Part shown: in pieces, positions 40,353 through 43,274 of the stretch
Position numbering within the stretch: position 1 is the stretch's first letter
How the letters are laid out: every line of letters begins with the position of its first letter
Assembly (NCBI RefSeq): GCF_041925275.1
Contig: NZ_JBHEUZ010000014.1
Location: 1 to 64,000, forward strand
Source: Parapedobacter sp. 2B3
GTDB lineage: Bacteria; Bacteroidota; Bacteroidia; Sphingobacteriales; Sphingobacteriaceae
Reading direction: 5' to 3'
DNA length: 64,000 nt
Made by a program: the position numbers and the translations under genes
Notes under the pieces: model-generated
Database searches by the model: none
What the model saw: only the letters and a program-made list of their open reading frames with translations
What the model was told of the DNA's origin: nothing

Positions 40353-43274
40353 ATGAAATTTAAAATCGTTAAGCTACTCCTTCTGGTATTCATTTTAATC
40401 CCCCTGTGTGATTACGCGCAAGATAAACGGCCCCGGCAACCGAATATCCTGTTTATTTTAGCCGATGACCTGGGATACCATGACCTCAGCTGTACGGGCA
40501 GTAGTTATTATGAAACGCCAAACATCGACCGTATTGCGCGGGAAGGGGCTGTTTTTACCGAGGGTTATTCCGCGTGTCAGGTCTGCAGTCCTTCAAGGGC
40601 GAGTATTATGACGGGGAAATTCCCCGCCCGACACGGTATCACAGACTATATCGGTGCGCCATACGGGACGGATTGGCGTAAACAGGGGCGGCACAACCAG
40701 TTGCTTCCAGCCGCCTATGATACGGCACTCCGCCATGCATACACTACGCTGCCGGAAGCCATGAAAGCCGCGGGTTACAAGACATTCTTTGCCGGGAAAT
40801 GGCACCTGGGCGGCCGGGGATCGTGGCCGGAGGACCACGGCTTTGATATCAACCGGGGTGGCTGGGAAAAGGGTGGTCCCAGCGGGGGCTATTTCTCGCC
40901 CTGGGAAAACCCCAACCTGGAAAATACAGTGCCCGGCGAAAACCTATCCATGCGGCTGGCCGCAGAGACTGTCAAGTTCCTGAAAGAAAATAACCCGCAG
41001 GAAACCGGGCAACCGGTGTTTGCGTTCCTGTCATTCTATGCCGTGCATGGCCCGATACAGACCACCCGGAAAAAATGGGAAAAGTACCGGGACAAAGCTG
41101 ATCGGAGTGGTATTGCAGAACAGGGCTTCAAAATGGAGCATTTTCTTCCCATGCGGCAGGTTCAGGATAACCCGATATATGCAGGCTTGGTGGAAACAAT
41201 GGATGATGCCGTCGGTGTGGTACTGCGTGCGCTCGATGAACAGGGATTGGCGGAGAATACCATTGTGGTCTTTACTTCGGACAATGGCGGTGTCTCGGCA
41301 GGTGATGCCTATTCAACCTCCAACCTACCCCTGCGCGGCGGTAAAGGATATCAGTTTGAGGGAGGAGTCCGGGTACCCTACTTCATGAAGGTTCCCGGCC
41401 TGACGAAGGGCGGCGAAGTCTATCATACACCGGTTATCGGTACGGATTTTTATCCAACACTGCTGGATTTGGCCGGTGCCGGGTTGAAGCCACAGGAACA
41501 CGAGGACGGGGTGAGTCTATTGCCGTTGCTTGAAGGCAATACGCTTTCCGGGCGACCCCTGATCTGGCATTACCCACATTATGGGAACCAAGGGGGAGAA
41601 CCCTCTTCCATCATCCGCCAGGGGCCCTGGAAACTTATCCACTACTATGAGGATGGACGGGATGAATTGTATAAGCTGGATGCCGATCCGCGTGAGCTAA
41701 CGGATGTGGCGAAGCATCATCGGCGGAAAGTAATGGAACTGTGCGCCACATTGGATGGATACCTGAAGCAGACCGGCGCCCGTTACCCGCAGCCCGATCC
41801 CGAGTACGACGCGGATAAGGAACGGCAATATTTGCAGCGGGTAATCACGGAAAAACTTCCCCAACTGGAAAGACAGCGTATGGAGTTCCTGTCACCTGAA
41901 TTTGATCCCGGAAACAACTGGTGGGGCAGCGAGGTCACGGCAATGAATCCGAATGTCGTGATTATCCTGGCAGACGACCTCGGATACGGAGATGTGGGCT
42001 TCAATGGCTGTGAGGACATTCCCACGCCCAACATCGATCGCATTGCGCGGAATGGCGTGAAATTTACCGATGCATATGTCACCTATGCCGTATGCGGCCC
42101 GAGCCGCGCCGGATTGATTACCGGTAGGTATCAGGACCGCTTTGGTTTTGGAAGGAATCCGCTTTTGGCTCCCAACGATCCCGATATGGGACTCCCGCTG
42201 TCTGAACAGACACTGGCAGACCTGTTAAAACCCGCCGGCTATCGTACGATGGCGATTGGAAAATGGCATTTGGGGTCGCATGCTTCTTTACATCCCAATA
42301 ATCGGGGGTTTGATGATTTTTTTGGCTTCCTCAGCGGTGGGCATCATTATTTCCCCGAACAATGGACATTGAACAGTGAGTTTGATGCCCGGTCCCAATA
42401 CGATGGGTATCGGACGAAACTTTTACGGAATTCAGATGCCGTGGATGAATCCGAATACCTGACGGATGCATTGTCGAGAGAAGCTGTGCGCTTTGTCAAA
42501 GACAACGCCAGTGCGCCCTTTTTCCTGTACCTGGCCTACAATGCGCCGCACACACCGCTTCAGGCCACGTCCAAATACCTCGATAGGTTTACACACATTG
42601 CGGATGAAAAGCGGCGGACTTATGCAGCGATGGTAAGCGCGATGGACGACGGGATCGGGCAGGTACTCGATGAGCTGGACGCGTTGGGCATAACTGACCA
42701 TACCATGGTTGTCTTTCTGTCGGACAACGGCGGTCCGGAAGCCGCGAATGCTTCGGACAACGGGCCACTGCGGGGAGGGAAAGGCAGCTTTTTTGACGGG
42801 GGATTGCGGGTGCCTTTTGCCATACAATGGCCGGATCACATCAGGCGTGGAACGGTTTGTCATTCTCCAGTCATCTCGCTGGATATCGCGGCGACGGTCG
42901 TTGCAACGATCGATCAGACGCATCCGCCGAAAAACGAATTGGATGGTATCAATTTATTGCCCGTACTGAACAATGCGGATACCGCTTCACGAAGCCGTCT
43001 GTTTTTCTGGCGCAATTTCGATAAAAAAATGCTTGCATTGAGAAGTACAGATTTCAAGTTGGTCATGCAGGATGGCCACACCCCGTCGCTGTTCCGGATC
43101 GGGGATGATGTGGCTGAAAAAAATAACCTATTCACCGGCCACGCGTCCACGGTCGACGGTTTGCATAAGCAATGGCAAAAATGGGCGTCGGAGCTGAAGG
43201 ACCCTGCTTTTTTGGGGCTGCTGCAGGATAAAGAATACAGTGAACAGCGAAAAGACCGGTTTGGCCAACCATGA
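40353..43274 (+). CDS. Tandem double sulfatase: two complete Cys-type sulfatase domains fused in one 973-aa polypeptide
   Basis: Domain 1 '[14 protein letters not shown]...[11 protein letters not shown]'; about 50-aa linker; domain 2 '[14 protein letters not shown]...[11 protein letters not shown]'; continuous reading frame. Confidence 0.8.
   Translation: [973 protein letters not shown]

Follow-up and report, generated by a model that had tools for sequence, protein, structure and literature searches.

A two-sulfatase fusion gene in a polysaccharide utilisation locus of Parapedobacter

Genes with two sulfatase domains are known from Planctomycetes from Porphyra blades (IMG 2643314295 and 2643291516), which Kim et al. 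2016 (PMC4807772) explained as fusions of adjacent genes. The gene described here lies at 40353..43274 on the forward strand of a 64,000-nucleotide stretch of Parapedobacter sp. 2B3 (contig NZ_JBHEUZ010000014.1, positions 1 to 64,000; this whole stretch is called the window) and likewise carries two S1 domains in one reading frame. The Planctomycetes genes belong to a different phylum and are known from a genomic description. A second group of relatives in architecture is formed by sulfatase-glycoside hydrolase (GH) fusions, of which S1_7-GH10/GH32 and S1_15-GH29 proteins of Kiritimatiellales have been treated as gene fusions (PMC6388578). Like these, and like the GH78/sulfatase 6HR5 and the GH16-S1_19 proteins P0129 and P0139, the Parapedobacter protein unites two catalytic modules in one exported chain, but its partner domain is a second sulfatase instead of a glycosidase. 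The literature searched contained no biochemically characterised sulfatase-sulfatase protein, only the genomic note of 2016 and multidomain sulfatases with non-catalytic modules.

Each half of the fused protein has single-domain counterparts of known structure. The N-terminal half shares fold and catalytic set with single-domain S1_16 sulfatases (HhSulf, 6UST; AMOR_S1_16A, 9FO1), from which it differs by an extra conserved C-terminal tail of about 45 aa and the attached second enzyme. The C-terminal half aligns over its whole length, and with the full catalytic set, to the S1_19 marine carrageenan enzymes (PfS1_19B, 6PRM; PfS1_19A, 6BIA/6B0K; 9HH2/9HH3); unlike these it lacks a separate signal peptide and is encoded in a locus of Sphingobacteriales that contains no carrageenan enzymes of GH16, GH82 or GH127/129. 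With a probability of roughly 80%, the product of the gene is a genuine bifunctional sulfatase of the periplasm that originated by fusion of two S1 genes within a Parapedobacter polysaccharide utilisation locus (PUL), the localisation, the substrates and the activity of both domains being predicted from sequence.

Domain architecture and catalytic residues

The open reading frame (ORF) codes for 973 amino acids (aa) plus stop and is uninterrupted, with 0 stops and 0 frame changes, while stops abound in both alternative frames around the junction. In the Pfam search the protein scores 394 bits against PF00884 (cut-off 25, E=4e-118) with two separate stretches, the best of which covers aa 533-851 and profile positions 1-297 of 301. 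Together with the complete catalytic sets described below, this bears out the initial annotation, which had proposed a single 973-aa ORF with two full sulfatase domains. At the very N-terminus a Sec-type signal peptide is predicted from the sequence (aa 1-23, 40353..40421, forward strand as are all features of this gene), and aa 2-24 are modelled as a helix by AlphaFold2. It would be the sole export signal of the fused protein. A lipoprotein anchor is unlikely, since Cys19 is replaced by Tyr in the relative P0002.

The N-terminal catalytic domain (aa 28-485, 40434..41807), delimited by its Protein Data Bank (PDB) matches 6UST, 9FO1 and 7STT, is S1_16-like and harbors the first formylglycine motif C78-S-P-S-R82 (40584..40598). 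The C-terminal catalytic domain (aa 533-973, 41949..43271), delimited by 6PRM, 9HH3 and 6BIA/6B0K, is S1_19-like and contains the second one, C581-G-P-S-R585 (42093..42107). Both motifs were located with a regular expression on the translation; the first had been placed correctly at aa 78, whereas the second is found at aa 581 and not near 590 as originally given. The remaining sulfatase signatures also occur twice, namely DDLGY at 38 and 541 (as anticipated), CxPSR at 78 and 581, GKWHLG at 148 and 636, SDNGG at 309 and 790, and RGGKG at 328 and 807. The motif around the active-site histidine reads AVHGP at 230 in the N-terminal half and APHTP at 731 in the C-terminal half.

Thus defined by motifs and alignment, all ten canonical S1 catalytic and metal-binding residues are present in both halves: Asp38, Asp39, Cys78, Arg82, Lys149, His151, His232, Asp310, Asn311 and Lys331 in the first, invariant in alignment A1, and Asp541, Asp542, Cys581, Arg585, Lys637, His639, His733, Asp791, Asn792 and Lys810 in the second, invariant in alignment A3. 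The catalytic and metal-binding roles of these residues are well established for S1 sulfatases. A1 was employed for conservation in the N-terminal half only, because MAFFT placed C-half homologues onto the N-terminal half when N-half homologues were numerous. One might consider that one half has lost its activity and is kept as a binding module for sulfated glycans or as a scaffold, as inactive enzyme-derived binding modules exist in other glycan-degrading systems. However, both formylglycine cysteines and the full catalytic set are intact in every fused orthologue, and the ratio of nonsynonymous to synonymous substitution rates (dN/dS) is equally low in the two halves, which makes a dead half very improbable.

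The initial annotation had also called the halves clearly divergent, and indeed they share 33% identity over 464 aa. With this low value, and with far closer unfused orthologues for each of them, sequence comparison identifies the halves as old paralogues and not as the products of a recent duplication.

Fusion joint and its conservation

Between the two catalytic domains a linker of approximately 50 aa had been proposed. This segment (aa 486-527, 41808..41933) turns out to be a C-terminal tail conserved in the S1_16-type orthogroup, as delimited by unfused orthologues and by the ends of the PDB alignments, and the actual joint amounts to about 5 residues. In the alignment the motif ...DPGN.WWGS also closes the unfused N-orthologues P0021, P0019 and P0006, and the tail pattern common to the unfused N-orthologues is ...LPQLE.QR..FLS..FDPGN.WWGS. 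The alignments to S1_16 structures stop at query aa 485-493, before the tail. Because the unfused N-orthologues carry an equal tail and the S1_16 chains in the PDB end at 485-493, the tail predates the fusion. Judged by these comparisons it is a pre-existing extension specific to the N-half orthogroup rather than a linker created by the fusion, and it appears to serve as a tether in the fused protein.

In the fused protein the tail ends with WWGSE, which is followed by VTAMN (aa 528-532, 41934..41948) and then directly by the mature start of the C-terminal half, as inferred from comparison with the unfused N- and C-orthologues. The joint stands at the very place where a stop codon, an intergenic spacer and a downstream signal peptide of about 30 codons would be expected. 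The unfused C-orthologue P0121 starts with MELNKF... and has its own signal peptide of about 30 aa; compared with such unfused C-orthologues, no remnant of a signal peptide is found at the start of the C-terminal half of the fused protein. An internal start at Met531 was considered and rejected, as this methionine is not conserved: P0003 has Thr and P0004 has His at the position.

The fusion is natural and not an assembly error. A search of 5.8 billion proteins retrieved four full-length relatives of the same architecture (P0001-P0004) with 98, 83, 79 and 79% identity. Parapedobacter indicus RK1 (isolate genome, locus L003) contains the same 973-aa ORF, with 93% DNA identity over the region, and the identical in-frame junction is shared by this genome and no fewer than nine other public assemblies (ENA, Logan, JGI) comprising four lineages with 79-98% aa identity. 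Two separate ENA assemblies contain P0002, Logan assemblies contain P0003 and P0004, and JGI metagenomes contain four more in-frame copies of the junction (L095, L097, L098, L099). These four were recovered by a scan with a degenerate DNA pattern that returned 11 stretches, the others being six out-of-frame chance matches and one false positive in a signal peptide. An exact-sequence look-up of the 973-aa protein of the window returned no record. The nearest relative, P. indicus RK1, is a cultured isolate, presumably from soil.

Between the fused lineages synonymous divergence is saturated (dS from 1.3 to >2), while dN/dS amounts to 0.05-0.09 in the N-terminal core, the tail and the C-terminal half; for the tail by itself, values of 0.075-0.12 were obtained. 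Given saturated dS and low dN/dS in both halves, purifying selection acts on each of them and the frame has been kept open over a long divergence. The expectation that no frameshift or stop separates the domains is therefore borne out by the clean ORF, by the recurrence of the junction in an isolate and at least nine other assemblies, and by the low dN/dS. A misjoining of adjacent genes by a sequencing or assembly error would find some footing in the sulfatase genes which adjoin N-half orthologues at distances of about 10 base pairs (bp), for example in Lutibacter citreus (L004) and Roseibacillus (L033/L034). A single-base error, however, cannot explain the join, since the C-terminal half lacks any remnant of a signal peptide, and the same junction would have had to arise in all the assemblies listed above, at 79-98% aa identity. 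Recent tandem duplication, the related explanation, conflicts with the 33% identity between halves that each have much closer unfused orthologues. Artefact and duplication taken together can be set aside almost entirely.

Unfused relatives of both halves are available for comparison. Orthologues of the N-terminal half are widespread in Bacteroidota (about 535-546 aa, 60-74% identity), the closest ones having about 537 aa and 70-74% identity. The closest unfused orthologue of the C-terminal half is P0121 from Anseongella (478 aa, 79%), followed by P0122 and P0123 with about 70%. These values of 70-74% and 79%, as opposed to 33% between the halves, and a joint composed of a gene end and a mature start, place the protein among gene fusions. 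In an Anseongella metagenome-assembled genome (L084) and in three Logan contigs, syntenic loci have an unfused S1_19 gene that stands alone; they share the regulator, beta-helix, S1_15, S1_8 and SusC/D genes with the window, and the S1_16 gene is absent. Their order is regulator, a Glyco_hydro_cc gene, the unfused S1_19 gene in the same orientation and, in the opposite orientation, S1_8, SusD and SusC.

This arrangement suggests how the fusion could have come about. An S1_16-type gene with signal peptide and tail would have been recruited directly upstream of the resident S1_19-type gene, and a small deletion would then have taken out the stop codon of the upstream gene, the spacer, and the signal peptide of the downstream gene. 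Reversal would be hard: as the C-terminal domain no longer has an export signal of its own, a split would leave it without one, and the fusion would be locked in. The fused gene has been retained across several rearrangements of the neighbouring genes.

Expected substrates and mode of action

Both halves were assigned to subfamilies by their best PDB matches, not by SulfAtlas models, with the labels taken from PDB entries and literature. The N-terminal half matches 6UST (2.6e-120), 9FO1 (annotated as 'k-carrageenan sulfatase S1_16', 2.7e-105), 7STT and 7OZA/7OZ9 (1e-50 to 1e-60), the whole fold being aligned to S1_16 structures over aa 25-493. Its best S1_19 match, 6PRM (7e-55), is well behind 6UST and 9FO1. 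The C-terminal half matches the exo-4S-kappa-carrageenan sulfatase 6PRM (1.3e-103), 9HH3 ('family S1-19', 2.5e-102) and the iota-carrageenan sulfatase 6BIA/6B0K (6.3e-102 and 1.5e-100), with 9FO1 as its best match outside S1_19 (1.5e-73). The alignment to 6PRM is end-to-end, covering aa 2-441 of 443 and starting at the mature N-terminus of 6PRM. By these comparisons the N-terminal half most resembles S1_16 and the C-terminal half S1_19, and since the halves fall into different subfamilies, dual specificity of the fused protein, one of the two options raised in the initial annotation, is plausible.

Characterised S1_16 enzymes remove the 4-O-sulfate from Gal or GalNAc, and one has been reported to act on GalNAc-6-sulfate. 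AMOR_S1_16A is an exo Gal-4-sulfatase that works on oligomers of kappa-carrageenan, whereas BT3057/BT3796 and Amuc1655/1755 are S1_16 members directed at 4S-Gal/GalNAc. Members of S1_19 share a regioselectivity for D-galactose-4-sulfate (SulfAtlas 2022). By analogy, the most likely target of the N-terminal domain is a sulfate on a non-reducing-end Gal or GalNAc, at O4 and possibly at O6, and that of the C-terminal domain most likely galactose-4-sulfate. The substrate of the locus is probably a sulfated, galactose-rich glycan.

Nine homologues of the C-terminal half with about 61-63% identity are themselves fused to GH16 (P0129, P0139, P0142, P0170, P0176, P0185, P0200, P0227 and P0229; 735-745 aa, PF00722). 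These GH16 fusions hint that the S1_19-like clade of the C-terminal half acts on a galactan or glucan which GH16 enzymes can cleave.

In the proposed mode of action the fused protein would be exported in a single step by means of its N-terminal Sec signal, and a maturation enzyme with its gene at another place in the genome would turn both Cys78 and Cys581 into formylglycine. The two domains would then use the standard Ca2+/formylglycine mechanism, each hydrolysing its own type of sulfate ester independently of the other, on oligosaccharides brought in by SusC/SusD. Desulfation would open the chain to the adjoining GH2 and GH128-like glycosidases. The benefit of the fusion would consist in assured co-export, a 1:1 stoichiometry and proximity.

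Several observations weigh against this proposal. For AMOR_S1_16A, Trp79, His125 and His149 in the vicinity of the S0 subsite have been reported as characteristic; the first two map by hand to Tyr99, which keeps the aromatic character, and to the retained His151, but His149 appears to align with Gly175 in a gapped region read by hand. Some N-half orthologues have a histidine one position off this site. With the equivalent of His149 apparently being Gly175, substrate recognition by the N-terminal half may differ from that of the characterised S1_16 enzymes. Furthermore, in none of 79 loci with N-orthologues (L004-L082, from Bacteroidota and others) is a C-half orthologue located beside the N-orthologue, the neighbouring sulfatases having at most 41% identity, and few of these loci share other genes of the window locus. 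In other Bacteroidota the two components do not usually lie side by side, so the unfused neighbourhood gives no independent sign that they share one substrate. Pfam and PDB searches of the locus found none of the classical carrageenan enzymes GH16, GH82 and GH127/129, and no formylglycine-generating enzyme was found among the scanned ORFs of at least 200 aa in the 64-kb window.

A 'Rosetta stone' interpretation, in which the fusion would record two habitual neighbours, was rejected on the basis of the same count of 0 in 79.

Double sulfatases as such are not rare in public sequence data. Among the best 150 HMMER matches to the fused protein in a library of 1.84 billion cluster representatives (clustered at 50% identity), 49 have at least two non-overlapping sulfatase regions, P0246, P0259, P0267, P0284 and P0300 among them; as a two-domain query favours two-domain proteins in such a list, this number is a lower bound on diversity and not a frequency. 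These proteins range from about 540 to 3,681 aa, mostly with at least 870 aa; the number of regions reaches seven, and two formylglycine motifs are recognisable in about 30. They occur in many combinations and in both orders, mostly as metagenomic singletons and in some cases on long NCBI contigs. With 27-46% identity to either half and without the WWGS tail, they represent independent fusions. Most relatives of either half have a single domain, so the general remark in the initial annotation that sulfatases are normally single-domain is right for most matches; it does not hold for the 49 clusters among the best 150, nor for the genes described in 2016 (PMC4807772). Given the many other double-sulfatase proteins, the gene of the window is a genuine but fairly ordinary fusion within a recurrent and already noticed architecture. 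It changes no current concept; for annotation it teaches that the sulfatases of a genome should be counted per domain.

One further double sulfatase involves the same N-terminal orthogroup. P0005 (990 aa; L083 10001-12973) has an S1_16-type N-terminal half with 70% identity and has kept the WWGS tail, but its second domain is S1_8-type (9BB9, 8.7e-99) instead of S1_19-type, and its contig contains a separate S1_19-type gene in contrast to the fusion in the window. In a neighbour-joining tree the N-terminal half of P0005 groups with an unfused protein and not with the clade of the window, and by this sequence evidence the fusion in P0005 took place independently, as a second case within the same S1_16-type orthogroup. 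The P0005 locus (L083) also encodes four beta-helix proteins, GH97, and SASA and GDSL esterase-like genes next to the S1_19-type gene.

A more ambitious explanation than independent action, in line with the processive desulfation suggested in the initial annotation, would be a cooperative or processive enzyme with two tethered sites, which strip neighbouring sulfates from one oligosaccharide without releasing it and so reach a rate or specificity beyond that of separate enzymes. In both subfamilies the characterised members target galacto-configured sulfates, for the most part those at O4, purifying selection acts on the tail, which does not drift as a passive linker would, and the fusion was retained through saturated synonymous divergence, all of which is in line with this explanation. 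However, the tail is equally conserved in the unfused orthologues, hence its constraint is older than the fusion, and retention is also accounted for by the loss of the C-half signal peptide. Since the partner differs in P0005 and double sulfatases exist in many combinations and orders, opportunistic fusion fits better than a designed pair. Two full-length AlphaFold2 runs, one with alignment A3 (deep for the C-terminal half only) and one with A4 (covering both halves, partly misaligned), reach a mean predicted local distance difference test of 68 and 63 and a predicted template modelling score of 0.49 and 0.47, respectively. The models are too poor for inter-domain geometry, and only the helix 487-512 and the low-confidence coil at about 508-530 found in both were used, with caution. 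Low scores and a low-confidence coil suggest that the tether is flexible, not that the domains share a fixed interface. Cooperation is therefore unlikely. Equally doubtful is its extension, according to which the orthogroup with the ...DPGNNWWGS tail is a fusion-prone 'carrier', whose tail tethers a second sulfatase (S1_19 here, S1_8 in P0005) to give a two-site machine that acts without release; if true, it would amount to a functional heterodimer encoded as a single chain.

Two independently acting domains in one chain are the preferred reading. The protein offers a clean test case: an isolate (RK1) carries the fusion, either half can be compared with orthologues that are not fused, and a syntenic locus without the fusion is available. 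A comparison of the fused protein with the separate domains would reveal any kinetic or specificity gain from sulfatase fusion, and the enzyme could serve as a compact tool with two activities to tailor sulfated galactans.

Genomic surroundings

The locus has the composition of a PUL, with a SusC/SusD pair, a hybrid regulator, two GH2 genes, a GH128-like gene and six sulfatase domains, and its synteny is conserved. The fused gene follows at a distance of 26 bp on a gene for a GH128-like hydrolase of 677 aa (Glyco_hydro_cc, 38293..40326, forward strand; PF11790, 2e-44; PDB 6UAQ family, 5e-25). Its stop overlaps by 4 bp with the start of a GH2 glycosidase of 827 aa (43271..45754, forward strand, from its Pfam GH2 domains), and the two genes are apparently part of the same operon. 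Divergent from this operon, and syntenic in all related loci, is a hybrid two-component sensor/regulator with Reg_prop, Y_Y_Y, HisKA, HATPase_c, Response_reg and HTH_AraC domains (33875..37978, reverse strand), which likely controls the locus.

Downstream of the first GH2 gene, an S1_27/S1_9-like sulfatase (45847-47334; PDB 2QZU, 6S21, 6J66) and a FAD-dependent oxidoreductase (47374-49077; PF12831, 1e-110) are encoded on the forward strand; neither is present in P. indicus RK1. They are followed on the reverse strand by a second GH2 gene (49095-50864), an S1_8-like sulfatase (50861-52294; PDB 9BB9 S1_8A, 1e-51), SusD (52281-53840) and SusC (53860-57003), all assigned by Pfam, as is the S1_27/S1_9-like sulfatase. 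At the left edge, also on the reverse strand, lie an S1_15-like sulfatase (30505-32052; PDB 7OZC, 1e-205, and 6S20, 1e-169) and a beta-helix protein of 548 aa (32116-33762) with a weak match to the GH136 lacto-N-biosidase 6KQS (1.2e-11). A classical carrageenan locus was considered and rejected, as the GH families typical of it are missing and the neighbours are GH128-like, weakly GH136-like and GH2.

In every related locus the beta-helix protein is again conserved at the edge; it could be a glycosidase or lyase, as yet uncharacterised, by which the substrate of the locus is defined. The GH128-like protein has 677 aa in the window and in the fused-sulfatase loci L088 and L089, compared with 376 aa in Anseongella (L084); its extra C-terminal part of about 300 aa has no Pfam match.

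The segment 45751-49106 between the two GH2 genes is a variable 'cargo slot'. It is reduced to 28 bp in RK1, contains GH106 and a FAD oxidoreductase in L001/L002 and a FAD oxidoreductase in L089, and in L088 the first GH2 gene is missing as well. A FAD oxidoreductase among glycosidases and sulfatases thus recurs in the related loci L001 and L089. DNA identity to RK1 is 93% to the left of the slot and falls to 83% and then 76% to its right, which suggests a recombination boundary at this position.

Within 37.9-49.2 kb, promoter-like sites are fewer than in shuffled sequences under a sigma-70 model, which is unsuited to Bacteroidota. Terminator-like sites number 19 as compared with 11.4 +/- 3.8; these are weak consensus matches to which no weight is attached.

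Outside the locus, all on the reverse strand, the window encodes two paralogous pyridine-nucleotide-disulfide oxidoreductases resembling lipoamide dehydrogenase (1316-2704 and 3723-5129) and a CheB/CheR pair between two hybrid histidine kinases (5920-11995). ORFs of 408 aa (12076-13302) and 200 aa (23097-23699) have no Pfam match. They are followed by tryptophan biosynthesis genes at 24341-28003, comprising Trp synthase alpha and beta, PRA isomerase and an anthranilate phosphoribosyltransferase-like gene.

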